The translations under genes and the position numbers were made by a program. Positions 5,538 to 48,800 of a stretch of 64,000 nt of DNA are shown in pieces. Source of the stretch: Folioceros fuciformis (taxonomy: Eukaryota). How positions within the stretch are numbered: position 1 is the first letter of the stretch; every line of letters starts with the position of its first letter. The stretch is from the NCBI GenBank assembly GCA_049999805.1, contig JBNGIO010005933.1, forward strand, positions 1 through 64,000. The letters run 5' to 3'. The notes under the pieces were generated by a model. The model was not told the origin of the DNA. It saw only the letters and a program-made list of their open reading frames with translations, and did no database searches.

Positions 5538-8500
5538 CTCCCACTCAACACATCGACCATCTAATTTATAAATCTTACTCAATTAACCCTAGCATCAACA
5601 TGAACCCTAAACTTCATATGCTTTTCTAAGGCTAGACCTTTGGTAAGAACATCAGTCAGCATGTTCTCTGTATGACAATAAGCTAATTCTATTTCTTTCG
5701 ATTGGACTTTCTCCCTAATGAAATGATGCTTAACTTCAATGTGTTTCGTCCTTGCATGAAAAATAGTATTCTTGGCCAAATGAATGCAGCCTTGATTGTC
5801 ATTGAAGATGAGGGTTGCTCCCTTCTACTTGAATCCCATCTCTTCAAGCAATCTACGAAGCCATATGGCTTCCACTGTTGCAGCTGAGGTTGCCATGTAC
5901 TCTGCTTCTGTAGAGGATAGTGCTATTGTGGGTTGACGTCTACTGCTCCACGAGATGGCTCCCCCAAATAGCATGAAGGCATATCCAATGGTAGACTTGC
6001 GGGTATCGACATCTCTTGCCCAATCTGAATCGCACAATCCAACAACCTAGGCTTCTTCTTTTTTATTTTGGTAAGTTAATTTTCAGTGCTTTGTACCCTA
6101 TAGATACCTGAAAATTCTCTTGACTGCTTGATAATGCTGTTGTTGAGGATTGACCAAGAATTGGCTCACAACCCCCACTGCCTCTGCGATGTCTGGCCTT
6201 GTGCTTGTTGCCAAATAGGTGAGACAGCCAACAGGACGCTGGTAAAGATTTTTGTCTACTCTTTCTGTCACCTTTTCATTTGTAGGATTTGCTTCCTTTG
6301 ACAGTTTCTCGTTGAGGATCATGGGCGTTCTTGTCGGTTTACAATCTTGGATTCCAAAACGCTCCAGTATGTTCTCCACATATGTTTGCTGACTTAAGGA
6401 GATTACCATGTTGATCCTTTGTCTTTCCACCTTTATTCCTAAGAAAAAATGGAGCTTGCCCATGTCTTGCATATCAAAACTTTCTTTGAGGTTCCTCTTA
6501 GTTGAGTTTAAAAGTTCCACATTGTTGCTAGCAATGATCAAGTCATCCACGTACACGGCAGTGATAACAATGGATTCTCCCACTTGCTTCACATATATAT
6601 TCCAATCAACGCTAGTTCTCTTGAAATCTTTAGACTGTAAGTGATTATCGAGCTTACGATACCAAGCAAGGCAGATTGTTTAAGACCGTAGAGAGCCTTC
6701 TGCAGCTTATAAACTTCGCCTTCTTTTCCTAGGGGTAAGGCTCCAACAGCGTCTTCAACCGTAGAAACATTAGGAGTGTCTCCCCCTTCCCCCCTTATGT
6801 CACCAGGTTGAGAAGAGTCGTCAAACATCGGATCAGGCGGGTCAAGGTGGCAGCTAGTTGGAGAAGGCACATCATTATCTCCGGCAGATGGAACATTTGA
6901 AGGGCCCACTCCAGGCATCAACTCGACAGCACCCTGAAAAACAATGTCCCTACTAAAAAAGACCTTCTTCGTAGTAAGATTGTATAACCTATAGCCTTTC
7001 ACAGCATCTGAATAGCCAAGCAGGAGACACTTCGTTCCATTAGCATCCCATTTGGTCCGGCTCTCCTTCGGGATACAAGCGTAGACCATGGAACCGAAAA
7101 CCTTCAAATGTCGGATATCAGGTTTTATACCGGACCATGCTTCCTCTGGTGTCATACTATGTACAGCTTTTGTCGGAACTCTATTCAACACATAGGTTGC
7201 TGTCATGACAGCCTCTCCCCAAAAGTTGACTTGCAAGCCGCTGTGAAACAACATGCACTTGGCTGCTTCCACAAGGCTCTGTATCTTCCGCTCCGCGACT
7301 CCATTTTGCTGCGGAGTGTGTGGAATCTTGAGTTGCCGTTTGATGCCGTTTTCCTTACAAAAACTTTGGAACTGAGAAGAAACATATTCTCCTTCATTGT
7401 CGCTCCGAAGCATCTTAAGGCATTCACCACATTCAGTCTCCACCATACTCTTTCACTCCTTAAAAGTCTGGAACACCTGAGATTTTTCTTTCAAAAGGTA
7501 AGTCCACATCTTCCTTGTAAAATCATCAACAAAGATGAGCATGTAGCGATTCCCACCCTGTGTAGGGTTTCGCATGGGCCTGCTCACGTTAGTGTGGACT
7601 AATTCCAGTGCCTTCTGCACACGATGTGTCGCAGCTTTAGGAAACTTTGTGCGATTTAGCTTCCCATCTGACATCCTGGACACAATTGTGTTACAGTAAT
7701 CTCCTTCAAATCTAATCCTGTCACCATGTCATGAGTCATCATCTGCTTGAGTTTGTCCACTCCGATGTGGCCCAAACGCTGATGCCATAAATCGATAGAC
7801 TCTATGTGGTTGTATGAACTAGCCAGGAACGTACAAGCTTGCTTTCTCATTGAAGCACAAAGTTTGTACAGATTTCCCACACGAACACCATGAGCAACCA
7901 CGTGTGATGGCTCAGGCTGTACAGGTTGAATGCAACAGCCTGTAGAGTTGAAGACTATTTCATGACCTGCATTTGCAATGCGCGCAACTGGAAGAAGATT
8001 CTTCGCGAGATTAGGTACATGATGCACATTCTCTATACGTGCGGGGTTGCCGCCCTGCAACTGAATGTGTAAGACTCCTTTCCCCTCAATATCATGTGAC
8101 GTATTGTCACCGAGTGTGTAGTGTATTATCACTGTATGGCCCTTTGAGAGTCTAGTGTAGCCAGTGAACCCTGGAAGGTTGTAACTGAAGTGCTGAGATG
8201 CACTAGAGTTGAGATAAAGATTCTTATCCTTCGTAGATGAAGTAGCTCCATCGCTAGCCACAAAAGATTGTTCCTATTGAGGTTGCTGACTCGCTTGATT
8301 GGCTTGATAGGATTTCTCCTTCTTCGACTCGTCTGCCAACCTAGTTGTACATTCTTTGGCGTGATGACCTGGCTTCCTGCAATAATAGCAAGATCCTTTC
8401 ATCGTACGGCTCGTACCATCCTTCTTCTTCTCGTCTATAGACTTGGACTCGTCCTTAGACTTGAACTTTGCCTTTCATGGTGAAAAGGACGGCATCATCA

Positions 8501-8643: not shown

Positions 8644-11600
8644 TTGTGATATCTAGAAGGCACTTCATCAGATGCTGGTTGAGAACCGATTGACTGTGTC
8701 GGTGAATNNNNNNNNNNCACTTCATCAGATGCTGGTTGAGAACCGATTGACTGTGTCGGTGAATACACAGTGTGAGCTTCGCCACACACTCAGTCCTGAT
8801 GATCCCTTCTACTAGTTCAACTCCAGGACTACCTTCAGGAGAGGCACAAAATGCTCTCAGTTGCGCAACAATCCTCTGCTGGAGAAACTGGATCGTTTCG
8901 TCTTTGCTCTTGAGTGACCTCATCAAAATGTCAACACGATCCCCAATGTCCCCGGTCTCGTCCCGAATATCCCCACTGCTCTCCAGAAACACGTCTATAC
9001 CATCGTAGTTAAATCTGATCAAGTTACGCGCAATGCTATACTGATGAGACTGCATACCGCAGAGCCCATCGAACAAGATCTGTCGTAACTTGACCTGCAA
9101 TGCACAAGCAATGGCCATGTCATAAAACCCAAGAGAGGTTATATGACTAACAAAAGAGACAGCTCAGACGGCAACGTACCTGGAATCTTGGAAAGCAGCC
9201 TGGACCGAGAATGTCTTTGTTTCATCTCGGCATTGTAGCCGCCTGCCTACATAATTGTACTTGGACCACGGACCACCTTTCCAGTCCAATTGTCGTTTCC
9301 CTTGAAGAGCTTTACCTTCGGCGTCATCCAAGGTGAAGGGAACGAAGAATCCAGGCCTTGGATTCGCATCATCTCGATAGCACAAGTTTAGTCTCATCAT
9401 CAACGATACCAAATCTTCAACACGAATCCTGTCGGCCGCGTGCGTGTCCTCGAGGATCCGGGTCAAGGTGTCGTTGAGGAGGACTTGAGCAACAAATCCA
9501 CGGTCTCGCGATCTCCCCAAGGAAGGCTGTCCGGCTAGGCGCTCAATGAGATGGCCCAGGAACGAATGACTGATCCAGTGTGGATTTACCACCACAGCAT
9601 CTGCATCTGCATCTTGGAACCAGATGACCCGGCCTGCATTGTGCAGATAGGCAAGAATTGCTTGAAGGCGTTGCTCATCAAATTCTTCAAAAACCTTTTT
9701 GCATCTCTCCTTGGCCACCAGAGGCTGACCTGGATTTTGAGATACCCAGTGAGTCAAAGCAGCACTGAATCGATTGCACGCCTCCGGGACCCAAAACAGA
9801 GGAAGCGCAAATAGCTCTTGAAATGATTGGAATAGCTGCTCCAGCAAAGGTTGCACAGTCTGTTTAGATCGAGCATCCATGAAGAAAGGCGTTGTCCTGA
9901 TAAGAAGTACCTCCTCGAAAGTCTTGGCCAACTCTTCCACGACTGGTTGCAGCAGACGAACCAGTAATTTAGCCTCCAGATCCTCCATCTGATCCTTATG
10001 AGTGACAACCACAAATACCCGAGGCAAACAGGAACCCACGTTGCGAGAATTGGAGTGGACGAATCTAAGCCAAAACTTGAAGCTGTTTCTGAACTTGTCC
10101 AGCAGCACTTCATCGGACGGAAGGGGTTCGACAGGCTTGTGGGCATCAAGTGGGTTGAATGTGAACAGGAAGACACATGTCTGGTTGAAGCTGGGGAACA
10201 AGTAGTCTTGCAGAGCTCGGTAGTGAGCTTGTCCAGCCAGATCCCAAATGGTAACTTCCATCTCGTCGTCGTTGCGCAGCACCTCGATTTCTATGCCTTC
10301 CGTTCGGGGCACAGTTCCGAAACGGCTGCAAGAACATATCCATCCCCAAGCTGAAGACAGATGTTCCCGGAGGGAGACAAGAAGCGACAGGTTGAGTGAT
10401 GCGCGCCATGCGGTGATCATGATGTTTCGGAGAGTGGTCTTCCCTGCGTAAGGTGCACCGCACAGGAAAAGGCGGCCGACCCTGGGCTTCACAGCCTCTT
10501 GCCCCTCCAAAAGCAAAGGCCAGTAGGCCCTGTGACTAACATTGCGTGCCAACGTCGCGTTGATGATGGCCTGCTTTCCCTCTCTCCCCCAGTTTGTGTC
10601 CTCTACGTCGACTTTCTGTAAAGTGGTGTTGACTTGGAGGTACTGCATCAACTCTCTGAACAGCTCATCGCCGAGTCCGTCGCAATACCAAAAGCAGAGC
10701 TCCTTCAAAGACGTATTTTTCGCCAAAGACTGCACCAACGCTTTCATGAAAGAGGGCCACTTAATCCTTTTCAAAACCAGGTTGCGTAAAGATTTGCAAT
10801 CCAGAAACGACATCGAAAATTCACTTAACGACTCGTCACCCTGATAGTCGCACAACTGAAGTGCGGAGAGGGTGGAGTTGTGGCGCCAGGCGTCCAGGCC
10901 GAACTTGACAACAAAAAAGCTGATCCTAAGCTCCGTGATACAATCGTTGGTGCGCAACATTCCGGCCAGCGCGTCGGCCAGGCCTGGCTCGTCTCTGTTC
11001 CTCCTGATATCCAACTTCAGCGTGGTGACTCCAGATATGGGGGCATCAGCCTCAGCATCAGCACGGGTGAAAGCCAGTTTCAACACAGTGCTCATGGGCC
11101 CCAGGCTGCCCTGTACGGAACCCCTTACTGCATCATACTCATCCCAATATTCATCATTCAAGTAAAGCTCCCGGAGCGAGGCACAGAGCGGAAGAGCGTT
11201 TGCAATACACTAGGCTCCCTCCTCATCCATGCCGATACTATCCAGATCCAGCTCATTGAGACGGGGAGCGGTGGCCAGCATGCGAGCCAGGTGCTGTGCC
11301 CCTTCACCATCTCCCACTCTGTTCCAGCTTAGGGTCAAACACTCCAGGACAGAATCCTGGTTGAAGCCATCGACCAGGGCACCAAGTCCAGCGGCATCAA
11401 GCCGAATGTTCCATGCCTCCAGCCGTCGCAAGCTGCGACTAGAAGCAATAAGCTGGCCCAGGGCCTTGCAACCCGCCAGCCTTCCAAAACCTTCGCACCG
11501 ATATAGATCAAGAAATTCCAGGGAAGGGTCGGATGCCACGCCCTCCAACAGAACCGCGCATTCATCCTCCCGACCGATGCCGATTCCCCAACTCGGGTCG

Positions 11601-11833
11601 ATGGACAGGTCGCGGCGGAGACTGCGGCACTGGACAATAGCTGTCAATACCCGCTTGCGCACTCGCCAGTGCCTGCCATCCGTGGTCGTTGAAGCTCCTA
11701 CACTGAAGAAATCGCCGTACTCCTTTCCGCCCAAGTAGGGGAGTTTGGTCAAGGCTTGCCCTTCCAGATCTTCCAGCAGCTGTTGCAGCTCTTCCGGCAA
11801 CTCGCGCCATTCATAGTCTTCCTGCTCCGCCAT
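8644..11833 (-). pseudogene. ROCO cluster copy 2: LRR-Roc-COR (TORNADO1-like), disrupted; C-terminal caspase region missing
   Basis: ATG at 11833; CAG->TAG stop at 11210-11212. Roc motifs GAPYAGKTT, RTEGIEI, WDLAGQ, VTHKD, DARS and COR VNPHW. 1-bp deletion at ~9210. Intron 9095-9179 matches the copy 3 intron. Homology to copy 3 stops at ~8644, where copia gag begins. Confidence 0.9.
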
Positions 11834-11904
11834 GCTGTGCTAAGCTGCGCTTCCCAATGCAAGCAAATATGATGAGTGGATTGAATGTATCATCCGTTTT
11901 GTAG

Positions 11905-12285
11905 CAGGGGCAGCAACCTCACAGCACACACTCGAGGATTGCGACACCAGACAAGGACAGGCTACGGGACAGGCAACTCACAAGCACAAACGCGCGGAGG
12001 GTTGGGACACCAGACAAGGATAGGCCAGCAGCCAGCAACCTCCCAAAAACACACTCGAGGAGGATTGGCAGACCACACAAGGATAGGCTAGAGGACGGTG
12101 ACATCAATCTCACAGGACACACACTTGAGGAAGATCCCGATTGGAACACCAGACACGGATGGGCTAGAGGACGACAACCTCACATCATACACACTTGAGG
12201 AAGATCCCGACTGGAACACCAGACACCTATAAGCTAGGGGACGACAACCTCACAGCACACACACTAGGTAAGGATAGGGACACCA
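11905..12285. repeat. Degenerate ~60-70 bp tandem repeat upstream of ROCO copy 2 (~6 units)
   Basis: Same unit as 1021-1260 and 30060-30410. Confidence 0.8.
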
Positions 12286-12760: not shown

Positions 12761-13850
12761 TCATTTTGAATGAAAAATTGTATCAGCTTGGTGTCCTTGC
12801 TCTCCAATCCGCTTGTGAAGCTCGATCCCCGTCTCTAACGCTGCGTTGCCAAGATTTGCACATACCTGAAGTATACAGAGAAATGTCATTACATTGGGTG
12901 AGGCCATGCCATCTTCTTGCATAGCATTGTAGGCACGCAGGGCTTCCAAGCCCTTGCCATTCTGGGAATACCCTGCAGTCATCACATTCCACGCCACAAC
13001 ATCTTTTTTTGCAATTCCATCGAACAGTGTCTGGGCATCCTCCAGGCTGCCACATTTTGCGTACATATCCACTAAGCTGTTCGCAACAAACACATCAGCT
13101 TGATGTCCTCGGTCCCTAATTTGGGCATGAAGCTCTTTCCCCCTCTCCAGAGCAGCAGTGCCCAAACTTGCACATGCCTGCAAGAGGCACACCAAAGTAA
13201 CAGAATTCGGTACAGCTGCGCCACCTTCTTCCATGACACTGTAGAGATGACGGGCTTCCTGCCCCTTGCCTTGCTGGGAATACCCTGCTATCATTGCATT
13301 CCATGTCACAACGTCTTTGTCCTCTACTGCATCAAACAGTCTCTGGGCCTCTTCCAAGCTGCCACACTTGGCATACATGTTCACCAAGCTGCTGGCTACA
13401 AACACATCATCATGGTGTCCTCTTTCTCTGATTTGTACATGAAGATGGTTGCCCTTCTCCAACGCTGGGGTGATCACTGTTGCGCATGCTTGCAGAAGAC
13501 ATACAAACGTAACAGAATTCGGCGAAGCATTCCCTTCCACTTGCATATCACTGTAGAGAAGAAGGGCTTCGTGGCCCATGCCCTGCTGGGCGTACAATGC
13601 TGTCATAGCATTCCATGTCATCACGTCTTTTTGACCAAGTCCCTCAAACACACTTCGAGCATCTTCCACGCTGCAACACTTTGCATACATGTTCACCAGA
13701 CTGCTGAATACAAACGCATCAACTTGGTGTCCTTGTTCCACGAGTTGTGTATGAAGCTGCTTTCCCTTCTCCAATCCCTTGGAACCCATGCTTGCACATC
13801 TCTGGAGGAGGCAGATAAATGTAACAGAATCAGGGACAAGGGCTGCGACA
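12761..13850 (-). pseudogene. PLS-class pentatricopeptide repeat (PPR) gene fragment
   Basis: Three P-L-S triplets: DVFVASSLVNMYAKCGSLEEAQRLFD / DVVTWNAMIAGYSQQG / PNSVTFVCLLQAC. No E/DYW tail; the ORF ends by running into ROCO 5' flank sequence. Confidence 0.85.
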
Positions 13851-22909: not shown

Positions 22910-24648
22910 AGAGCTTCAAAATAACTTCTTCAACATAAAGCTTCTCCGCCTTGTCTGCTTCACCTAAGCAAACATACTTTCTACCATATTCTTCAGTCTC
23001 ACCATGGGCATTTACGTAAAACAGAAAGCAATCGTGCTTATTGAAGTCAGGATGCCCGACAACGTGCTCCAACGTTGATTTCGCTTCCTTAAGATCGTCC
23101 ACCACACAGACCATCTCAAACTTCAAGGGCAGACCACGGAGAAGAACGTCGAGTCGCCCTCTGTCTAGCTGTCCTCCATCTCTGCCTTTTTCTATACTGA
23201 CTATCATTGCAAGACCTCGCCCGTGACCTGCTTTCACCCTTTCGTTTGGATATGACGGTTCCTTCCTTGACTTCAGTAGAGGCGGTCCCTGTGACTGACA
23301 TTGGATACGATGGTTCCTTCCCTGAGGTTCTCCACACACTCAGTCCTGATGATCCCTTCTACTAGTTCGACTCCAGGACTCCCTTCAGGAGAAGCACAAA
23401 ATGCTCTCAGTTCCGCAACCAAACTCTGCTGGAGAAATTCGATCGTTTTGTCTTTGCTCTTGAGTGACCTCATCAAAATGTCAAGACGATCACCAATGTC
23501 CCCGGTCTCCTCCCCAATATCCCCACTGCTCTCCAAAAATACGTCCATAACATACTAGTTAAATTTGATCAAGTTGCGTGCAATGCTATACTGATGACAC
23601 TGTATACCCTAGGGTCCATTAAACAAGATCTGTCGTAAAATGACCTGCAACGCACAACCATTGGCCATGTCATGAAAGCCAAAGAGAGCATATATCACTA
23701 ACGAAATGTCACAGACCTCACAAGGCAACGTACCTGGAATCTTGGAAAGAAGCCTGGACGACAAACGTGTTCATTTATCTCGGCATTGTAGCCACCTCTC
23801 TAAGTAGTTGTACTTGTGCACTGTACCACCCTTCCAGTCTCTCGGCATTGTAGCTGCCTCCCTTTACCTTCTGTGTCATCCAAGGTGAAGGGAACGAAGA
23901 ATCGAGGGCTAGGGTTCGCATCATCTTCATAGTACAAGTTTAGTCTCTCCATCAATAATACGAAATGTTCACCACGAGTCTCGTCCGCTTCCGTGACCTG
24001 GTCCAAGGTTGCGATCTTGAGAAGCTTTTGAGGCAAACGTTTTCTAAGCTGCTACTTCCACCTTTCCTTCCCTCCCCCACTTGTCACCTGAGGACAGAAC
24101 ATGACTGTTACAACACTGCACCTTGCAGGAGAGATGCCTTCCTTCACATGGAAGGTGGGTCTATGGACCGTAGGATCCCACCACCTGAGTTCTGCTCAGC
24201 TAGGCTCCCAGCCCATTCATCGTCATCCCTTCCTTTGGACCTTTTTCCTCTGAATGAGACTGCCCGTCTGGGTTGCTTCAAATCCCACATTATACGTACC
24301 TCGAAAACATACATCATGCCTGCCCAAGGGAGAAAAGTCCCTCATAGTCGAGTCCCACGCAATACACAAACCGGAGCTCATTCAAAGGTGTATTTTCACC
24401 AACGCTCTTATAAAAGAGGGCCAGTTTATCCATTCCAAACTCAGGATGCGTAATGATTTGCATTCCAGAGACGACATCGAAAATTCCCTAAACCACTCGT
24501 CACCGTCATAGTTCCACAACATAAGATGAGAGAGGGTGAAGTTGTGGCGCCAGGCGTCCAGGCCGAACTTGACAACAAAACAGCCGATCCTAAGCTCCGT
24601 AATACAATCGTTGGTGCGCAACATTCCGGCCAGCGCGTCGGCCAGGCC
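22910..24648 (-). pseudogene. ROCO cluster copy 4: fragmented remnant (LRR piece, COR pieces, N-terminal half of the caspase domain)
   Basis: LRR piece 24381-24648 (GLADALAGMLRTNDCITEL); COR 23750-24010 and 23330-23644 with the same intron position; caspase piece RGLAMIVS..RDGGQLD..DCFLFYVNAHG at 22915-23290, lacking the ACRG half. Stops and deletions present. Confidence 0.85.
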
Positions 24649-25803
24649 NNNNNNNNNNCTGACTGGCCAAGTTGTCTCAATTCTCCAGCCAGCCATCAGG
24701 GATGAGAATCTGCATCTCTGGGGACCGACTTACACATTACTTTTCAGCAAGCCGAAACGAGTGGCACAGCCCGGCTATTGAAACCTCTGCCTACCAACAC
24801 CGTTCACAATTCCCCTTGACATCCTGGAGGATCCCGGGAAGAACAACTTACTTGAAATCAACCTGTGCATTAGTCAACTGGAGATTCATCAACGAGAATT
24901 TACTGGAAATCTGCTTTTGGAGTTCATGCCAAATCCCACGGTAACTGCACAAACGGAAACAGAGCTCAACACAGCGCAAACCAGGTCGGTATACTATTTC
25001 TTGAATCTGCACCGACACAGAGATGTCAGGTATGTCACTACGGGCAGCTCCCAGTACGATGCAACACCGTACTGTATCCCACTGGTGGTCGGTCGGCCCG
25101 GAGCTTGGCCGGCCCACACGTTTCCTGCGCGATCGAGAACGTTCTTGGCTGCTGCTGACCGGGACGAGAATATTAAATACAGTACATGTACTGTATGTCG
25201 GTCAGTGTTTAGTGGAGAAAACCCGGGCTTTATTGAAAGAGGAAGAGAGAGAAAGATGTGGTCCAAACCAGGAGAAACTACGGCGACAGCACCAACCCCA
25301 AAACGTGCTACCACTGGTATGACTGTGACATGAAGGCACAAGCTCCCGACCCGACGCCAGTTCAGAGCGAGACATCCTGTCCCAGCTTTGCTTTTGGCTC
25401 GTCGCGGAGGGAAGATGAGGCATACATCCTCACGCCGGTGTACAGAGCAATGTAAACACCAGAAGTTCAGACCTCAAACTTGGACTTGCTTCTTGAAACC
25501 AACACCTCCCAGCTGTGCACGAACACAGCACCATCTTCCCTCCTTACACATCGCCTCCACGACCCATCATCTGTTCATCCACACCAGGACAGGACCCTGT
25601 GAGAGGACGTTTTTGCCAAACCAGGCAGAGAACGGGAGGAGACGTGAGAAGGTCGGACCACAGGCAGTTCGACACACCAATAAACAGGCAGTACAGTATG
25701 TATCTAGAGAGACTTGATACCTGACAGTTGATGGAAGGCATTACAGGCCCTGACCACACGCTCCTCACGCTAGCCAACCAGGCATTCGCAGAGAATGGGG
25801 TGG

Positions 25804-28800
25804 TTAAGACCAGTATAGCTTTCCAGTAAGTGTGGTGAGGACCTGGGGACACTGCACGTTCTGCATTTCGGTGACCTCGCGAGTCACTCTTGTTAGAATG
25901 CTCACCACATCTTCGGTACGAGAGTGGTCAATGATGGCTCTCATGAAAGCTACGATGAAGTTTGTGCCTTCCTTAACATTTCTGAAGGATAAATCTCCAG
26001 GACTGGTAGAGAAGACGATGAGAAAATCTTTCGCCTGGTACAAGGGTCGAATTCTCTTGCTGAGACCCTGGCTTCCCTCAACGTCTGACCCCTCGGCTTT
26101 GCTGGTAGTGGTAAGGTCGGCGGGGCCCGGCCCCTGTGCTTTCATGCTTCTCACCAGACTGCGAGTGCCTCGACAAGCATTTATGACAACCACCTTAGGC
26201 TTGTGTGCCAAATTCTGGCATTCAGCGATGGGATTCAAAATATCTTCTTCAACATAAAGCTTCTCCGCCTTGTCTGCTTCACCTGAGCAAACATACTGTC
26301 TTCCGTCTTCATCAGTCCCACCATGGGCGTTCACGCAAAACAGAAAGCAGTCGTCTTCTGCTAGGCGAGGGACCCTGAGAAGGGCTTTCAACCTTGATTT
26401 CCCTTCCTTAGGATCGTTCACCACGATATCTGTATCAAAATTCAACATCTCGAAGAGTGCTTCAAGTCGCCCTCTGTCTACCTGTCCTCCATCCCTGTCG
26501 TCTTCCATGCTGACTATCATTGCAAGCCCTCTCCGGTGACCTGCTTTCGCCCTTTCGTTTGGATATGAAGGTTCCTTCCCTAACTTCAGTATAGGCGGTA
26601 CCTGTGGCTGACTTGTTCCAGCTGAAGGCCCACTCGTTGCGTCGAGGGATGGACGGGGCCCACACTGCCGCAAAGCAGACTGCACCTCTTCGCTACTTAA
26701 CAGATCCCTGGCTTTCTCGTATACAAGGGATAGACCAGCTTCAGGCATTTCTGGCCAGCACCATTGATAATCGGAGCAATCCGAGCCGGAGGAAGTCTGT
26801 CCTGCATGGCTTTTGTGATGATCCAGAAAGCACTTCATCAAATGCTGGGTGAGAACCGATTGACTGTGTCGATGAATACAGAGTGTGAGCTTCTCCACAC
26901 ACTCAGTCCTGATGATCCCTTCTACTAGTTCAACTCCAGGACTACCTTCAGGAGAGGCACAAAATGCTCTCAGTTCCGCAACAATCCTCTGCTGGAGAAA
27001 CTGGATCGTTTCGTCTTTGCTCTTGAGTGACCTCATCAAAATGTCAACACGATCCCCAATGTCCCCGGTCTCGTCCCAAATATCCCCACTGCTCTCCAAA
27101 AACACGTCCATACCATTGTAGTTGAATCTGATCAAGTTACGCGCAAAGCTATACTGATGAGACTGCATACCGCAGAGCCCATTGAACAAGATCTGTCGTA
27201 ACTTGACCTGCAATCCACAAGCATTGGCCATGTCATGAAACTCAACAGAGGTTAAATGACTAACAAAAGAGACAGCTCAGAAGGCAACGTACCTGGAATC
27301 TTAGAAAGCAGCCTGGACCGAGAAACGTTTTTCTTCCATCTCGGCATTGTAGCCGCCTGCCTACGTAACTGTACTTGGACGCCGCACCACCCTTCCAATC
27401 CAACTGTCGTTTCCCTTGAAGAGCTTTACCTTCAGCGTCATCCAAGGTGAAGGGAACGAACAATCCTGGCCTTCGATTGGCATGATCTTCGTAGCACAAG
27501 TTTAGTCTCTTCATCAATAATACCAGATATTCAACACGAATCCCCTGCACTTGCGTGTGGTCGAGGATGTCGTTCAAGGTTCCATGCAGCAAAGTTGTAG
27601 CAACAAATCCATCCTTGAATATTCCCAAGGAATCCTCTCCGGCTAGGCGCTCAATGAGGCGGCCCAGAAATGAATGACTGATCCATTGTGGATTCACCAC
27701 CACAGCATCTACATCTTGGAACCAGATGACTCTGCCTGCATCGTGGAGATAGGCAAGAATTGCTTGAAGGCGTTGCTCATCATCTTGTCGAAACAACTCT
27801 TTGCATCGCTCCTTGGTGACAATAGGCTCAGCTGGATTTCGAGATACCCACCGTGTCAAAACAGCACTGAGTCGGTTGCATGGCTTCGGAACCCAAAACA
27901 GATGAAGTGCAAATAGCTGTTGAAACGATTGGAATAGTTCCTCCAGCAAGGGGTGCACGGTGTGCGTAGATCGAGCATCCATGAAGAATAGATGGGTTGT
28001 CGTAACATGAAGTACCTCCTGAAAAGCCTTGGCCAACTCGTTCACGACTGGTTGCAGCAGTTCAACTAGTATATCAGCCTCCCGAGCCTGCATCTGATCC
28101 TTGTGAGTGACAACCACAAATACCCGAGGCAAACATGAACCCACGTTGCGACAATTAGAGTGGATGAATCTAAGCCAGAACTTGAAGCTGTTTGTGAACT
28201 TGTCCAACAGCATTTAAGTAGACGGGAGGGGTCCACTAGGCTTGCCGGTAGACGGGAGGGGTCCACTAGGCTTGCCGTCATCAAATGGGTTGAATGTGAA
28301 CAAGAAGACACATGTCTGGTTGGAGCTGGGAAACAAGTAGTCTTGCAGAAATCGGTAGCGAGCTTGTCCAGCCAGATCCCAAATGGTAATTTCCATATCG
28401 TCGTTGTTGAGCAGCACCTCGATTTCTATGCCTTTCGTTCGGGGAACAGTACCCACCTGGCTGGGTGATGCCGCTCCTGTGCATGGATGCCACCCCAAAG
28501 GTTTCCAAGGTGGAAACAATTCCAGGTTATATCGTGATTTCAATCGTGGTGGCGATGCGCGCCATGCGGTGATCATGGTGTTTCGGAGTGTGGTCTTCCC
28601 TGCGTACGGTGCACCGCACAGGAAAAGGCGGCCGACCTTGGGCCGCACAGCCCCTTGCCCCTCCAAAAGCAAAGGCCAGTAGACCCTGTGACTAACATTG
28701 CGTGCCAACGTCTCGTTGATGATGGCCTGCTTTCCCTCTCTCCCCCAGTTTGTGTCCTCTACGTCGATTTTCTGTAAAGTGGTGTTGACTTGGAGGGACT

Positions 28801-29986
28801 GCATCAACTCTCTGAACAGATCATCGTCGAGTCCCTCGCAATCCCAAAACCAGAGCTCAATCAAAGACGTATTTTTCGCCAAAGACTGCACCAACGCTTT
28901 CATGAAAGAGGGCCCCGTTATCCTTTCCAAATCCAGGGTGCGTAATGATTTGCATTCCAGAAACGACATCGAAAATTCACTCCAAGACTCGTCACCGTCA
29001 AACAACACAAGTTCGGAGAGGGTGGAGTTGTGGCGCCAGGCGTCCAGGCCGAACTTGACAACAAAACAGCTGATCGAAAGCTCCGTGATACAATCGTTGG
29101 TGCGCAACATTCCGGCAAGCGTGTCGGCCAGGCCTGGCTCCTCTCTGTTCCCGATACCCAACGTCAGCTGGGTGACCCCAGATACGGGGGCATCAGCCTC
29201 AGCATCAGCACGGGTGAAAGCCAGTTTCAACACAGTGCTCATGGGCCCCAGGCTGCCCTGTACGGAACCCCTAACTGCATTACGACTACCCGGATATTCA
29301 TCATCCAAGGAAAGCTCCCGGAGCGAGGCACAGAGCGGAAGAGCGTTTGCAATACACTGGGCTCCCTCCTCATCCATGCCGATACTATGCATATGCAGGA
29401 CATTGAGACGGGGAGCGGTGGCCAGCATGCGAGCCAGGTGCGGTGCCCCTTCACCATCTCCCACGCTGTTACAGCCTAGGTCCAAATACTCCAGGACAGA
29501 ATCCTGGTTGAAGCCATCGACCAGGGCACCAAGTCCAGCGGCATCAAGCCCAATGTTCCGTGCCTCCAGCCGTCGCAAGCTGCGACTAGAAGCAATAAGC
29601 TGGCCCAGGGCCTTGCAACCCGCCAGCCTTCCAAAACCTGAGCACATGCTCAGATCAAGTTCTTCCACGGCAGGGTTGGATGCCACGCCCTCCAACAAAA
29701 CCGCGCATTCATCCTCCCGACCGATGCCGATTCTCCACCGTTCATATATCTCCAGGCGGCGGGGGCAGAGACTGCGGCACTGGCCAATAGCTGTCAATAC
29801 CCGCTTGCGCACTCGCCAGTGCCTGCCATCCGTGTTCGCTGAAGCTCCCTTTCTGAAGAAACCGCCGTACTCCTCTCCGTCCAAGAGGGGGAGTCGGGTA
29901 AAGAGGGCGTGCCTTTCCAGATCTGCCAACAGCTGTTGCAGCTCTTCCGGCAACTCGCGCCAGTCATCGTCCTCCTGCTCCGCCAT
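25804..29986 (-). CDS. ROCO cluster copy 3: LRR-Roc GTPase-COR-caspase-like protease fusion (TORNADO1-like N-terminal part); ~1365 codons with one in-frame TAA
   Basis: Exons 29986-27293 and 27207-25804; phase-0 GT-AG intron 27208-27292 joins FLRFQ|VKLRQ. RNI-like LRRs; Roc G1 GAPYAGKTT, G2 RTKGIEI, G3 WDLAGQ, G4 VTHKD, G5 DARS; COR. C-terminal peptidase C14 with His (NAHG, 26323-26325) and Cys (NACRG, 26173-26175). A single in-frame stop at 28214-28216 means it may be a recent pseudogene or a sequencing error. Confidence 0.9.
28218..28277. repeat. Perfect 30-bp in-frame tandem duplication (GKPSGPLPST x2)
   Basis: GTAGACGGGAGGGGTCCACTAGGCTTGCCG twice. Confidence 0.95.
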
Positions 29987-30059
29987 GCTGTGCTCAGCTG
30001 CGCTTCCCAACGCAAGCAAATATGATGAATGGATTGTATGTATCATCCGTTTCGTAGCA

Positions 30060-30410
30060 AGGGCAGCAACCTCACAGCACACACTCGAGGATTGCGAAAC
30101 CAGACAAGGACAGGCTACGGGACAGCCAACTCACCAGCACACACGCGCGGAGGGTTGGGACACCAGACAAGGATAGGCCAGCAGCCAGCAACCTCCTAAC
30201 AACACACTCGAGGAGGATTGGCAGACCACACAAGGACAGGCTAGGGGACGGTGACATCAATCTCACAGGACACACACTTGAGGAAGATCCCGATAGGAAC
30301 ACCAGACACGGATGGGCTAGGGGACCACAACCTCACATCATACACACTTGAGGAACATCCCGATTGGAACACCAGACACGGATAGGCTAGGGACGACAAC
30401 CTCACACAAT
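30060..30410. repeat. Degenerate ~60-70 bp tandem repeat upstream of ROCO copy 3
   Basis: Same unit as 11905-12285; shared flank with copy 2 continues to ~30713 (matching ~12775). Confidence 0.8.
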
Positions 30411-32384: not shown

Positions 32385-33778
32385 AGTTGCTGCATGGATA
32401 TATACTGTTGAGGGTGGTGTAAGATGGCTGGAAGGAACAGATGATGGGTAACCAGTAGGCGGACACGTCAGCAATCTTACATCATCAACTGGCCCTTGAT
32501 CTGCTCCAGTCGTGTAGCGCAGTTTGAGGTGGATCCCCTGTGCTTGTTTTGTAGCAGCTGTTTGTCCAGTTTCGGCCACTGCAATGAAATAGGCTGTGGA
32601 CTGGATAAGGCATTGGACTCCCTCTGCATACTGTCTGCTGCCTCCTTCAGTAGAATGACTTCCTGCTGAAGCCCGGGGCTACCTGCTATTGGGATAAGTT
32701 TCTTGCCTGGCGCCTTTTGATTTCGGTGAACAATTGTTTTTTAAACATAAGTGTGCTTTAGGCTTTTGAATTGTGAAGCAGCTTAGTAGATTTCTTTGAT
32801 ATATTATCCTAGATACAAACTCACAGAGGCCTTGCCTTTGTTGCTGTTTCTGAGGTGTGGTTCTGCTTAGAACGGCACGGCTCGGCACGGCACTGCACTG
32901 CACTGCCTCCCGCCATCTGCTTCTTCATTCATTGGTCTCCCTTAACTGCGTCGTCAATGGTTTAGCGACGCTTGCTGCCTTCTGCGAATTGATCTTCTCA
33001 TCTAGGGGGTTGTTGTAATCTGCTCTTCTGCTTCATTGTGGTCTTCCGACTGTTATTCCATCATGGTAGAGGTATTCTGACTGGCCTGAGCGCTTCGACC
33101 TCGACAAAACTGCAGCTGTGTATCCTTTCCGCCCCAGCATCCTCATCAACTGGTCTGCCTTCTTCCTTGGCATCCCAAGTTGTTTTTGCATTCTGAGACC
33201 GATGCCTCTGCTCCTTTCCCTTGAATTGCCCTTCCTTGTTGCGAGAGAGCAAGAGCTAGCTGTTTTGCAGGGCCGCCAGATTTGACTTGCAGTATGTTGG
33301 CTCATGGACCTAGGCGTCTGCCTGTGGTTTTCGTATCATTTTGGCAAGACTCGCTGCTTCGTAGGATCATGCAGGTGTGTTTCTTCCTGCAAGGCGGAAC
33401 ACCAGAGACCAGAGCACCAGATACAGCTGACAGCATCCAAGGGGGGTAAATTCCTTTGTTGGCCACTTGGTCTATGTTGCCTGTATACTAGGATGAATAC
33501 AAAGTAGGGTCACATTCATCAAGATGTGGTTGATGTCCAAGTGTCCACATTTCAAGCTGCGAGACGCCCATACCCTTTTGCACAGCATCTCCCTCGATCT
33601 GAGATGGTGCAATCGCCATTAGCGTCTCCAAACGGTTGATTTGCTGTGCTCGTGTGCGCAAGGTGGCGGTTAATCATTTGGCGTAGCATTGAAAACTGAA
33701 ACCTTCTGTTTCTCGTCCGTTGAACTAACTTCACAAGATTCGATATGGCCCTGGTGGAAGCAAGGAGCCATTCAGACG

Positions 33779-34252
33779 ATGCTCTCTAGGAGTTGGGCAG
33801 TGGGAAGTCGGGCGTCGCCATGGGGGACAGGAGGCGGGCGAGTCCGGGTCCCATTAGCGGCGACTTGCGTTTGTGCGGCTAGGGCTGGCAGGAGCAGGCA
33901 AATGCGAGCTATGGCTGGAGAGCCCGAGAGGAGTCAGGAGCGCAGGCGGCTGGTGGATGTGCTACGCATGTTGCCCAAGTTGTACGAATCGTATTTCAGG
34001 AGTCGTAGGCGGCGGGCGCTCTTCGGGGGTCTTGCCATCCTTGGGGGCTTCTATGTCGCTCTCAGGGTGTCCATTTCATACGGTTCCTTGCCTGTCAACG
34101 ATTGGCTCGCTGCGGCTGTTTTCTATCTCTTCACCGAGCTGGTCACATGGTACAATTACTCCCGGCCCGTCATCACCTTCCCTGTCGCCATGGTCAACAA
34201 CTTCAAAGTGGGCTTCACGTATGGCCTGTTTGTGGGAGCCTTCAAGCTCTGA
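33779..34252 (+). CDS. Ycf20-like (DUF565) plastid membrane protein
   Basis: Transit-peptide-like N-terminus; LGGFYVA..VNDWLAA..NNFKVGFTYGLFVGAFKL family signature; start codon uncertain. Confidence 0.8.
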   Translation: MLSRSWAVGSRASPWGTGGGRVRVPLAATCVCAARAGRSRQMRAMAGEPERSQERRRLVDVLRMLPKLYESYFRSRRRRALFGGLAILGGFYVALRVSISYGSLPVNDWLAAAVFYLFTELVTWYNYSRPVITFPVAMVNNFKVGFTYGLFVGAFKL

Positions 34253-36978: not shown

Positions 36979-38677
<1,699 letters not shown>

Positions 38678-45874: not shown

Positions 45875-48800
45875 ATGGGCAAGGACTCCTATGTAAGAAC
45901 TGGACCTCCACAGATGGAGGTCTCGTCGGAGATGGAGGACGGAGCCATGGATACAGACGTTGAGGAGGCGGGGGTGGATGCAGAGCTGGAAAGAGCTGTG
46001 CAGCTGGATGAGAAGACTCGGGCTTTGGCATCGGCTCTGGGGACCAAGAGTGCCGAAGATTTGGTAACGGCGTTAGAGAGGATGAGAAGGGTTATTGAAG
46101 GTAAAGACGGAGGGGATGTCTTGCAGAGATATGTCTTGGCATCACCCAATTGCAGCGAGTTGCAATCAGCATGGGAAGCAGGTAGGTTTCGGACAACGGA
46201 GGACTGGGTGTTTGTGTATTGGTTGTGGAGCGTATGCTCTTTGTTGAAGGATATTTGATGCTGATGGAGATTTGATGCTTGGTTTGATTCAGGGCCAGAC
46301 TCAGCAGTGAGTGTCCCCCTGCTGAGACTTCTGTCTGCGATCCTTCGGCATCCTGTGGGATTAGTTACTGTTGAGGATGATCATCGGGGAAAGGATTCTG
46401 ATGAGGATAAGAGTAGAGTGAGAGTCCGTCTGAGGCTGGATAAACTTGCAACCTCCATCATACGGACAAGAATGAAGGCCATGTATTCTCATCTGTCATC
46501 TAAGAAGCGGGCAAGGCAGAATGCGGCCTTGGTTTTGCTGACTGGCATTGTCTTCAGGAGTAAGATCATTGCTGCGGAACTTGCCAAGGACTTCAATTTT
46601 TCTCTGGAGGCCTTGCGGGAAATGGCAAAACCGCCTCGGCTGTCTGGAGGAAAGAGCAGGGTGCAGAGGCAAAGCTCACCTCTTTTCCAACCCACAAGGG
46701 TTGCCTTTGTAGACTTTGCAATGTCATTTCTGACGGTGAGCGACCCAGGGCTGCTCCGCTGGGTTCTTGCACAGCGCCCACTCTATTATGGTGTGCTGAG
46801 GTTCCTTGCTAGGGACGATGAAAAAACTGTTACGTACGTTTTGAAGTTACTCCAGAAGAAAGTGGTAAATTCCACCGCTGCTGTGCCCTCTGGCATTATG
46901 AACTCATTATTTGGCGATCTTGCTCTTGATCAGTTGGCACAGATTGTTCAGAATGAGCAGTATGCCGACGCTCCCAAGCTTGCTTACCAAATTCTTATTC
47001 AACTTTGTACACGTCCAGGACATGGTTTATCCACAGCCTCCACAGACTTTTCCAAGTTTGTAGGAACATCTTCCTATGGCAGCAGAGACAGCAAAGTATT
47101 AAGGCTACTGCTGCATCTAAAACCAACAGTGTTTGAAAGGCACAGGGCTTTGCTCTTTGCTATAGCAGGCTCGACACCAAAGGTGGCCGCAGCATATCTT
47201 GACTCGTTGCCGTTTTCTCTACAGCCCAGACGGTCATCCTCTTGGTAACTATGTGTAGGATTCTGGAAGCATTGTGATTGGCCTTGCTTTGCCTGGTCAC
47301 ATTGCTTGCTAATTTGTGCTCTGTTGCGCTCCAGGTTTGCTGCAATGTCAGTTGTTGCCGAACTTGTTCCAAAGGCCAGTGTTCCACCTCCATTTTCCTC
47401 CCTAGCCGCCCAAGGACTCTGTCCTGCGCTAGATGGGCCACTAGTCCAAGGAACCATTCACAGTCTGATTCCTCGTGCTCTTTCAAGAGTTGCTCTTAGC
47501 AAGGGACTTCAACATGCGGATGTGCTAATCATCCAGGCTTGCTTGAAGGTTATTTTCGTGGCTTTGCAGTCTGCAGAGCTTCTTCTCGGAGGAATCCTGG
47601 AGGCTGCTGATCTCTGCAGTGTCACCCCCGTAGTCGGCAAGTCTAGAGGTGGCATAACTGAATCCTTGTCAGAATCCGGTTGTAAGAATGAGCTCGACGA
47701 TATACCAAGGCATGAGGGTTTTCGGAACACCTTTCTGAAGCAAGAGTCAACGTCACTGTCCCGTGGGGCTATTCGATCCTATGAAACTCCTTTGAGTAGC
47801 AAACATGAAATGTCTGTCACTAGCGATTACTGGTATGGGTTTGCCAGACATGTTCAGGATTCTTTGCGTGCATTGTTGCCTGACCCACAGCTTCTCATTA
47901 GACTCCTACACTCTAAGGAAGGAGTGATGGCTATCAGCAAGAAAAGGAAATTACAGGCTGACAGTGACACTGAGCTATCAAGAAGCAAGAAACAACGTGT
48001 GGGGAAAGTGTCTACAGAGGGTGACACAGCTGGTAATAATAGTCTTGGAATGGATGAAAGCAGCGATGAGGAGGATGATATTAATTACTTGAAAGTAGAA
48101 GACCTTCTTCCAGATGCCTTAGAGCTTTTGCACAGGGAAGGACTGCGCAATTCAAAGGTGCTTGAAGTCTTGGGAGCATATCAGGTATGCATGTTTTCTC
48201 CTGAAGGATCCCTTGCTGAACAGAAAGAGGCTCAGGGTATTGGCAGCTCCTGGGTTACATGATGAGCATGTCCAGCTGAGGCACTTATTTGGATAACCCT
48301 TAGTGTAGTTCATTGACGCCTCACCTGCTTGTGTCGGTTGTTTGTTGCAGAGAGTTTTGCCAGTGTCTCTGGCAGATAATCGTTTTGATGCCTTCAAGCT
48401 GTTACCTGATGATCCAAGCTCCTTGTTACCTGCACAGCAGAGGGCTCTGCTAGGTCTGTTATTGTCTGCCACAGACCATGACTTCAGTAGCTGTGCTGGC
48501 ACGAAAAGGCATCTGTGGCTGGATATGCCAAAATCTGGACCTATATACAAACATCTGAGGTCATTGCTACGTGTGATGATTTCCACTGATGTAGATGATA
48601 TAAGGAAGCAGGCACGTGAGCTATCCTCCAGGGCTATGATAAGTACTGGTGCTTTTGACAGTGGAAGTTACGAGGTCTCTTTGCTGCTAGACTTCATCCC
48701 CTTGGAGGCAATTACTTCTGTCAATCTACATCCTAGGAAAAGCTCTGGCGGGTCCTGCATTCAGGGTCTATACGCAGAAGCTGTGGTTTCGTTTTTATCA

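Follow-up and report, generated by a model that had tools for sequence, protein, structure and literature searches.

Tandem clusters of plant resistance genes, among both NLRs and Cf-4/9-type receptors, have hypervariable xxLxLxx residues in their leucine-rich repeats (LRRs). Excerpts of a work on brown-algal LRR-ROCOs state the same for the exposed xxLxLxx residues of NB-LRRs and present the algal proteins as candidate immune receptors with positively selected sites on the concave face (PMC11378527). In these algal genes every LRR is a separate exon, shuffled and alternatively spliced, and a search of the paper for caspase gives no match (PMC11378527). The excerpted part of a 2014 review describes TORNADO1 (TRN1) as a developmental ROCO gene of plants and restricts the ROCOs of plants to flowering plants, with Tornado1 as the sole representative (PMC4104024). 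According to a recent abstract, metacaspases take the place of caspases, which are absent from plants (PMC12521494).

The window analyzed here, i.e., the whole stretch of 64 kb from the hornwort Folioceros fuciformis, contains four minus-strand LRR-Roc-COR paralogs (c1 to c4), with at least four copies in 30 kb. They resemble the resistance-gene clusters of plants in being tandem paralogs with birth-and-death, sequence exchange, and differences on solvent-exposed strand residues. They differ from them in having a Roc-COR GTPase switch and no NB-ARC/NACHT ATPase, an N-terminal LRR of the ribonuclease inhibitor (RI) type, a caspase-type protease as effector, and an LRR framework whose silent sites have diverged more recently than those of the switch domain. 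With the brown-algal LRR-ROCOs, as the excerpts portray them, they share the LRR-Roc-COR order, a multi-copy family, and an apparently selected concave LRR face, but the 12 hornwort LRRs lie in one exon (codons 1–590 of c3 form one uninterrupted ORF), outside the algal class of shuffled genes with one exon per LRR. The excerpted TRN1 description also has N-terminal RI-like LRRs followed by Roc-COR. A TORNADO1 orthologue would be a single-copy gene that has no protease domain, whereas the hornwort family is multi-copy and hypervariable, with a C14 protease at the C-terminus, and thus appears distinct by copy number and domain content. An analogy in logic (sensor, switch, and caspase, with an aligned His/Cys dyad) exists with the NLR/apoptosome-caspase pathways of animals. 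In contrast to these, the putative hornwort system has sensor, switch, and protease in one polypeptide, a GTPase in place of the STAND ATPase, and no detected CARD/DED adaptor. On balance, we consider it probable that these genes code for LRR-Roc-COR-C14 receptors whose LRRs are homogenized by exchange, whose concave face carries selected diversity, and whose ligands are likely to be nonself.

Gene Copies in the Window

The sole complete gene model, derived from ORFs, is that of c3 (25804–29986, minus strand, as are all features given here). Exon 1 (29986–27293) and exon 2 (27207–25804, including the stop) are joined with an unbroken frame across an intron (27292–27208), and the contigs of public run X3 skip precisely these 85 nt, which have GT..AG ends. 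The product begins with an N-terminal cap (codons 1–71, 29774–29986), helical in the AlphaFold2 (AF2) model, and continues with an LRR domain of 12 RI-like repeats (codons 72–445, 28652–29773) delimited by variation, AF2, and Foldseek. A Roc GTPase and COR-A region (27293–28651) identified with Pfam follows, and a caspase-type Peptidase_C14 domain (25813–26532) is found with Pfam PF00656 and by phmmer against PDB. The interval 28690–29800, where a previous sequence-only reading located the differences between paralogs, is indeed the LRR region of c3 on the minus strand, and the peptide triplets which it quoted are all found in the translations. An in-frame TAA interrupts c3 (28214–28216, GAA in c2), immediately preceded by a 30-nt tandem duplication (28217–28276).

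Copy c2 (8718–11833) comprises LRR-Roc-COR and the beginning of exon 2, where it is cut by an assembly gap (8708–8717). It has an in-frame TAG (11210–11212) and a frameshift caused by a 1-nt deletion beside 9209; in the stretch past this indel, the reading frame of c3 is the one that matches the relative P0162 (alignment A1). Copy c1 (1–840) codes for the cap and LRR1–6, is open throughout, and runs off the window. Copy c4 (22915–24648), bounded by a gap (24649–24658), is decayed, with a 13-nt deletion opposite c3 28876–28888, large deletions, and stops. Stops or frameshifts, as read in this gapped draft assembly, thus affect c2, c3, and c4, which we count as evidence of birth-and-death, and the window copies may no longer be functional, their sequences being a record of selection in the past. 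This disruption escaped the sequence-only reading, as did the C-terminal caspase-type protease. A copia-type element adjoins the paralog array.

Domain Architecture

The Pfam Roc profile matches both c3 and c2 with 23 bits (E = 1e-4), under its 27-bit cut-off, and COR-A scores 41.6 bits in c3 and 35.1 in c2 (cut-off 35.3). Relatives bearing Roc and COR align by phmmer over residues 452–892 with E-values down to 1e-104, and the c3 translation contains P-loop, DxxG, and xKxD-like motifs. The beginning of exon 2 is COR-B-like (38% identity to P0156 and P0161). The protein has therefore the two marks of ROCO proteins, a Roc GTPase domain (recognized from relatives and motifs, with a Pfam score below cut-off) and a COR directly after it. 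Scanned with Pfam at E up to 0.01, the six ORFs gave no match to NB-ARC or NACHT, and the family falls outside the plant and animal NLRs (STAND).

The C-terminus of c3 matches Peptidase_C14 (PF00656) with 99 bits (E = 4e-28, cut-off 21.4). When this domain is compared with PDB by phmmer, caspases make up all 60 of the 60 matches listed; the best alignments are with animal caspases (caspase-8, -9, -1, CED-3, and Dronc, E from 2e-12, for caspase-8, to 3e-7). The Atlas clusters for the domain are caspase-1/-14/-3 (0.95). A His and a Cys of c3 align with the caspase-8 motifs SHG and QACQG, and we take these residues to be the catalytic dyad; with the C14 profile, they would qualify the domain as a putative caspase. 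Aligned with the S1 pocket of caspase-8, it appears to have both Arg, but the Gln of QACxG is replaced by Asn, in which it differs from animal caspases. The AF2 model of the C14 domain, built from the single sequence, has a pLDDT of 35 and is unusable.

Variation Follows the LRR Register

The repeat register L1-x2-x3-L4-x5-L6-x7-x8-N9-x10-x11 fits twelve LRRs, and the variability was compared site by site among the four window copies, with at most three sequences at any single site. Codons that vary in amino acid are frequent at x3 (7/12), x5 (9/12), x7 (11/12), x8 (8/12), and x10 (6/12), the last lying directly past the strand, and rare at x2 (2/12), L1 (1/11), L4 (1/12), L6 (2/12), N9 (2/12), and in the helices outside the motif (21/145). 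Taken together, x3, x5, x7, and x8 vary in 35 of 48 codons versus 52 of the 324 other LRR codons (Fisher p = 3.3e-15, odds ratio 14). When the register is shifted by −13 to +14 codons, the count never reaches 35: the next best is 28 (at +2) and all others are at most 20. The nucleotide differences between c2 and c3 are likewise clumped, with a variance/mean ratio of 1.99 in 9-nt bins (in 2000 shuffles it averages 0.90 and does not exceed 1.29). L4 codons differ between copies in only 0–1 of 12 cases, the 35 L1/L4/L6 codons show 0–2 silent differences, and no pair of copies has a synonymous-only difference at x3, x5, x7, or x8. The clustering of variation on the LRR register is thus confirmed as real and far from chance.

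The AF2 model of the LRR region (pLDDT 82, pTM 0.82) contains 12 strand-helix units, and in all 12 repeats the beta strand begins at L1+2. Foldseek matches this model to ribonuclease inhibitor and to the LRRs of NLRP3/7/9 (probability 1.00, E down to 3e-12), and the Pfam matches to LRR_6/LRR_4 are under the curated cut-offs. AF2 and Foldseek together describe an RI-like horseshoe, with repeats of ~28 residues, an LxxLxL strand, and a convex helix. Hence the paralog differences, which the sequence-only reading had assigned to exposed LRR positions, do fall on strand residues of an RI/NLR-like horseshoe according to the AF2 model and the variability counts. At the DNA level, the copies are nearly identical in the helices and in the Leu codons that lie between the variable ones. 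The same reading had called two helices essentially invariant in DNA, and each has one variable base (about 2/126 among c1–c3); this invariance reflects a young, probably gene-converted LRR segment, beyond protein constraint alone.

Receptors in an arms race have a classical footprint, the hypervariable LRR face of clustered genes. In plants this footprint has so far been tied to NLRs and receptor-like proteins, and here it is found on a ROCO GTPase chassis, itself fused in the hornwort to a protease whose nearest solved relatives are animal caspases.

A Putative Single-Chain Receptor

In the explanation we favor, the window contains a portion of a cluster in which members of a large gene family arise and die in tandem, and whose proteins would combine an LRR sensor of the RI/NLR-like kind with a GTPase switch (Roc-COR) and, at the C-terminus, a caspase-type protease. 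The LRR framework would be kept homogeneous by unequal crossing-over or gene conversion, while selection would create or preserve amino acid diversity on the concave, ligand-binding face, so that each paralog may have a different binding specificity. By analogy with known sensor-plus-caspase systems, of which this would be a single-chain counterpart, binding of a ligand to the LRRs would release the GTPase switch, dimerization or oligomerization mediated by Roc-COR would bring the protease domains together, and the ensuing proteolysis would lead to defense or cell death. The same analogy makes nonself recognition by the hornwort family plausible, its ligands being most likely variable nonself molecules. 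We propose only tentatively, as a view still short of even chances, that hornworts have a large, expressed, fast-diversifying family of single-chain intracellular immune receptors in which a hypervariable LRR sensor and Roc-COR directly control a true caspase-type protease.

If this were true, executioners of the caspase type would exist in land plants, and receptors of a class other than NLRs would have come independently to the logic, from sensor to caspase, by which the inflammasomes and apoptosomes of animals work. To our knowledge, hornworts are the bryophyte lineage least studied for immunity, and functional proteins would offer a testable route into how they sense ligands and kill cells. 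They would also be a natural single-chain system for the coupling of ligand binding to an effector by Roc-COR, relevant to LRRK2-type proteins, and an added case of gene conversion and diversifying selection at codon resolution.

The selection could be real and yet act on variable self or selfish ligands rather than on pathogen molecules, e.g., in allorecognition, in sexual or gametophyte compatibility, or toward transposon or symbiont products. The analysis identifies no ligand either way, the copia-type element lies beside the array, and excerpts of a work on fungal NLR-like families with similar patterns give them a role in allorecognition (PMC13449251). We nevertheless regard such ligands as unlikely, since positive evidence for them is lacking and pathogen sensing would just as well account for a birth-and-death cluster and for the order of sensor, switch, and protease.

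Silent-Site Ages and Probable Selection at the x Positions

Between c2 and c3, pS is 0.065 in the cap and LRR, 0.234 in Roc-COR, and 0.063 at the beginning of exon 2, i.e., about 4-fold higher in Roc-COR than in cap and LRR (Fisher p = 4e-9). The younger silent sites of the LRR framework point to gene conversion, and the mosaic of silent-site ages indicates that exchange occurs. The local silent divergence (~0.05) is matched by noncoding differences between c2 and c3 in the intron (7/85) and in the 5′ flank (5/67). Because these are equally conserved, the low framework dS represents the local neutral level. A constraint on silent sites from an antisense ORF (28698–30176, plus strand) was rejected, as there is no plus-strand ORF of at least 180 aa over c2 and the noncoding flanks are as conserved as the LRR. 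Programmed diversification of the DGR or VLR kind was also discarded, the window having no template repeat or cassette array.

At the x positions of c1, c2, and c3, pN is 0.29–0.37 versus a pS of 0.03–0.05 in the surrounding LRR. In a maximum likelihood (ML) partition model where the silent rate is shared with the surrounding LRR, omega at x is 7.2 for c2 and c3 (LRT 40.4, p = 2e-10), 12.4 for c1, c2, and c3 (LRT 56.8, p = 5e-14), and 4.0 for c2, c3, and c4 (LRT 13.6, p = 2e-4), whereas that of the remaining LRR codons is 0.6–1.15. The cap also evolves fast (NG86 pN 0.116–0.164 vs. pS 0.033–0.071 in three pairs). If the x codons are allowed a separate silent rate, omega falls to 2.4 (p = 0.10), 1.3 (p = 0.55), and 3.9 (p = 0.075), and is significantly above 1 in one of six fits; third positions of x codons differ by 0.19–0.29 per site versus 0.016–0.042 in the framework (pairs of c1, c2, and c3). 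The diversifying selection claimed by the sequence-only reading, to be given up if dN/dS at x positions did not exceed 1, is therefore borne out with flanking dS as the yardstick, pN at x being 6–12 times the surrounding LRR silent divergence, but in no more than the one fit with the codons' own silent rate. Since omega is mostly nonsignificant in the latter fits, part of the x-site diversity may be old and maintained, or imported by exchange, rather than newly selected.

One might then dispense with adaptation altogether, the x codons being unconstrained, their differences old and neutral or imported piecemeal, and gene conversion having erased all others. The omega of 1.3–3.9, mostly not above 1 with significance, and the demonstrated exchange agree with this, as does an x-site divergence (pN and third positions alike) near the silent divergence of Roc-COR (0.23). 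However, conversion tracts are unable to skip single codons, and L4 and L6 sit among the variable ones. If x sites were neutral, one would expect them to be homogenized to ~0.05 like their neighbors, yet 35 of 48 differ, so that keeping the difference requires selection. Neutral relaxation is a poor fit under either yardstick, and we hold an origin without adaptation to be quite unlikely. That the copies are decaying pseudogenes, differing by degradation or by errors of a gapped draft, is very improbable in spite of the TAG and frameshift of c2, the TAA of c3, the many lesions of c4, the seven N runs in the window, and an omega near 1 at non-x LRR codons, because decay is expected to hit all codon positions alike, whereas the differences track the LRR register without a single silent-only change at x3, x5, x7, or x8, most indels in the coding alignment of c1, c2, and c3 have lengths divisible by 3, and spliced paralog contigs exist.

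Family Size, Expression, and Relatives

Public runs contain many expressed, spliced paralogs. Contig pieces with at least 85% likeness to the 4.4-kb gene number 616 in X1, 745 in X2, and 489 in X3, with as many as 18 contigs over a single place on the gene, and a comparison of run contigs with the gene reveals 887 variable places. The X3 contigs spliced at the GT..AG intron belong to paralogs; that this run is RNA is a guess, its contigs being spliced. At many places none of the runs has the letter that stands in the window.

A search with the LRR-Roc part of c3 among proteins of near length gave four weak RanGAP/NACHT-type LRR matches and no close relative. In the full library, the best phmmer identity was 37–40%, and extra close paralogs for site models were not found. 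Exon 2 had one match among longer proteins (P0163, 24% of the query) and none with a similar caspase domain, which is weak evidence, and Pfam detected Peptidase_C14 in 0 of the 37 relatives scanned (28 + 6 + 3). Literature searches did not bring up any bryophyte family of LRR-Roc-COR-caspase proteins, a point on which supplements and recent hornwort pan-genome papers may bear. Thus, the hypervariable pattern itself is classical, and the LRR-Roc-COR-caspase family appears to be undescribed. The relatives share 33%–40% identity over Roc-COR, and those of bryophytes have in common the LRR-Roc-COR-B arrangement, a modular chassis, with other C-terminal modules (e.g., DUF676, an alpha/beta hydrolase).

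Four LRR-Roc-COR Paralogs in a Hornwort Window

The window is plant nuclear DNA and contains several ordinary plant genes: a PPR protein (12761–13789, minus strand), a DUF565 protein (33689–34252, plus), a two-exon HCT-type acyltransferase (36991–38677, plus), and a long Npa1/URB1-like ribosome-biogenesis gene (46307–52811, plus). The acyltransferase is 90% identical to Anthoceros agrestis HCT over 37790–38674, the next named organisms being Sphagnum species (62–63%). These identities mark the source as a hornwort, probably a species other than A. agrestis. A BLASTN search of the whole window with 25501–30400 finds four related copies of an LRR-Roc-COR gene, all on the minus strand. Copy c1 (1–811; 87.3% over 820 nt) runs off the window, c2 (8718–12248; 87.6% over 3601 nt) is cut by a gap at 8708–8717, c3 lies inside the query and is the query itself, and c4 consists of three fragments within 22915–24648 (81–84%). 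Copia-type retroelement fragments (GAG-pre-integrase, integrase, SH3-like; 6589–8261, minus) lie between c1 and c2 and adjoin the gap that truncates c2.

The sole complete gene model, c3, has exon 1 at 29986–27293, an 85-nt GT..AG intron at 27292–27208, and exon 2 at 27207–25804. The reading frame is unbroken across the exon junction, and the intron is exactly skipped by contigs of X3, one of three public sequencing runs (X1–X3, all from one organism), labelled RNA as a guess. Among the window ORFs, Pfam identifies Peptidase_C14 (99 bits, E = 4e-28) and COR-A (41.6 bits, over its own cut-off), with Roc at 23 bits, under the 27-bit cut-off. Two short tandem arrays (a 63-nt unit × 2.6 and a 70-nt unit × 2.1) occupy 30087–30406, upstream of the c3 start codon, and BLAST finds similar sequence upstream of c1 and c2. 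A 492-codon ORF (28698–30176, plus) is antisense to the LRR region of c3, and one of 186 codons lies opposite c1. As there is no antisense ORF of at least 180 codons opposite c2, codon composition probably accounts for the one at 28698–30176.

Variation Concentrates on the LRR Strand Face

The sequence-only reading had placed the paralog differences at exposed LRR positions within 28690–29800, which is the LRR region of c3; the codon alignment of the copies, built in the c3 frame, reproduces every peptide it quoted and confirms the concentration. Twelve repeats follow the pattern L1-x2-x3-L4-x5-L6-x7-x8-N9-x10-x11; their L1 residues are c3 codons 75, 107, 137, 165, 194, 222, 271, 300, 323, 348, 375, and 404. 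An AlphaFold2 model of c3 codons 1–445 (15 aligned sequences; pLDDT 82.3, pTM 0.82) has 12 strands, each starting at L1+2, and its Foldseek matches are ribonuclease inhibitor and the LRRs of NLRP3, NLRP7, and NLRP9. Amino-acid-variable codons number 7/12 at x3, 9/12 at x5, 11/12 at x7, and 8/12 at x8; 6/12 at x10, 3/12 at x11, and 2/12 at x2; and 1/11, 1/12, 2/12, and 2/12 at L1, L4, L6, and N9. Outside the motif, 21/145 helix codons and 14/96 other coil codons vary. Variable codons are thus 35/48 at x3/5/7/8 vs 52/324 in the rest (odds ratio 14, p = 3.3e-15), and shifting the register gives a peak at shift 0 (35), the runner-up being 28 at +2. The c2–c3 differences cluster (9-nt bins give a variance/mean of 1.99, and 2000 shuffles a maximum of 1.29), and no x3/5/7/8 codon differs only synonymously in any pair. 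The two helices singled out as near-invariant at the DNA level have one variable base each when counted on the alignment. The N-terminal 71 codons (the cap; 29774–29986, minus) are fast-evolving too, with pN 0.116–0.164 vs pS 0.033–0.071 in all three pairs.

Mosaic Ages and Probable Selection

Silent sites of c2 and c3 diverge by 0.065 in cap plus LRR (28652–29986; about 20/308 sites), 0.063 at the start of exon 2 (26831–27207), and 0.234 in Roc-COR (27293–28651; 69/296 sites, Fisher p = 4e-9 vs cap plus LRR), all on the minus strand. Segments of different age are thus combined in one gene, which suggests gene conversion or recombination among paralogs; in this pair the switch domain is the older part. 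Given the low silent divergence of cap plus LRR and the high one of Roc-COR, the helix invariance probably reflects, for the most part, an LRR segment that was exchanged recently.

By Nei-Gojobori counts, c2 and c3 have pN 0.293 at the x positions (43.2/147.7 sites; pS is left out, silent sites being few), pN 0.051 and pS 0.049 in the rest of the LRR, and pN 0.129 and pS 0.234 in Roc-COR. The c1–c2 and c1–c3 pairs are similar (x pN 0.31 and 0.34; rest pS 0.03). In a purpose-built maximum-likelihood codon model (MG-type, F3x4) that applies a single silent rate to the whole LRR and fits separate omegas, omega at x is 7.2 for c2 and c3 (LRT 40.4, p = 2e-10; rest 0.90), 12.4 for c1, c2, and c3 (LRT 56.8, p = 5e-14; rest 1.15), and 4.0 for c2, c3, and c4 (LRT 13.6, p = 2e-4; rest 0.62). 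The local silent yardstick is fair, because between c2 and c3 the intron (7/85) and 5′ flank (5/67) are just as little diverged.

When x codons are given their own silent rate, omega drops to 2.4 (c2, c3; p = 0.10), 1.3 (c1, c2, c3; p = 0.55), and 3.9 (c2, c3, c4; p = 0.075), and on x3/5/7/8 alone only c2-c3-c4 is significant (p = 0.013). The drop arises because third positions of x codons differ too, at 0.19–0.29 per site vs 0.016–0.042 in the framework (c1/c2/c3 pairs). The diversifying selection that had been proposed for the concave face is supported against the local neutral yardstick (omega 4.0–12.4) and is unproven under the stricter within-codon test (1.3–3.9). Either the x codons underwent many recent changes, or older diversity was kept while the surroundings were homogenised. 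Plain neutrality is disfavoured by the interleaved leucine codons, since L1, L4, and L6 are at framework level (2 silent-only differences in 35 codons, c2–c3) and a conversion tract cannot leave out individual codons. On either of the two remaining readings, selection must favour amino-acid diversity on the strand face. Recognition of non-self is a reasonable inference.

A Caspase-Type Domain on an LRR-Roc-COR Chassis

The C14 domain (25813–26532, minus) forms the C-terminal end of c3. Its best PDB alignment is with caspase-8 (E = 2e-12); all 60 PDB matches listed are caspases, with no metacaspase among them, and in the Atlas the closest clusters are those of caspase-1, -14, and -3 (0.95; 30/30 matches in that family set). 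A His and a Cys, the presumed catalytic pair, align with the caspase-8 dyad, both presumed pocket Arg are present, and the Gln of QACxG is replaced by Asn. The closest LRR-Roc-COR relatives are 33–40% identical, the named ones being liverwort proteins of Riccia and Marchantia, and a C14 domain is absent from all 37 that were scanned. Two of the relatives, P0156 and P0161, share with exon 2 its COR-B-like stretch, the initial 180 residues, and diverge beyond it, and others end in DUF676 or a weak alpha/beta-hydrolase match. These differing ends point to a chassis bearing interchangeable C-terminal modules.

The kind of site pattern is already known. It is classical for clustered LRR receptors and is reported (PMC11378527) for brown-algal ROCOs, whose LRRs are encoded one per exon and shuffled as such; the hornwort LRRs occupy a single exon. 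A 2014 review (PMC4104024) restricts plant ROCOs to Tornado1, in flowering plants only. A bryophyte LRR-Roc-COR-caspase family was not found in the main text of the openly available papers searched, nor in the passages of PMC11218826, PMC11906373, and PMC8075897 reached by term look-up. What appears to be new is the type of receptor, in which a hornwort joins a hypervariable LRR-ROCO to a caspase-type protease.

Family Size, Expression, and State of the Copies

Contigs of the three runs, placed on the 4.4-kb gene at a likeness of at least 85%, cover it with 616 (X1), 745 (X2), and 489 (X3) pieces. Their likeness ranges from >99% down to <90%, as many as 18 distinct contigs coincide at a single place, and letters differ from the window at 887 places, which means that many paralogs exist. 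X3 contigs with a likeness to c3 of about 84% show splicing of the c3 intron; hence, paralogs are transcribed. An indel-rich insert lies between the P-loop and switch regions (28440–28555, minus), and in each of the three runs, DNA data among them, contigs lack 114 nt of it.

The stops are as they read in the assembly, which has seven N runs in the window. Copy c1 is open over all 280 visible codons. Copy c3 has one in-frame TAA, at 28214–28216 (GAA in c2), directly after a 30-nt tandem duplication in the Roc domain (28217–28276, minus) that encodes a 10-residue peptide twice. In c2 there is an in-frame TAG at 11210–11212 (CAG in c1 and c3) and a 1-nt deletion beside 9209 that disrupts the reading frame upstream of the intron; at this site, the c3 frame matches that of the relative P0162. 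Copy c4 carries stops as well as large deletions and one of 13 nt. Because most indels in the coding alignment of c1, c2, and c3 have lengths divisible by three, the lesions look recent.
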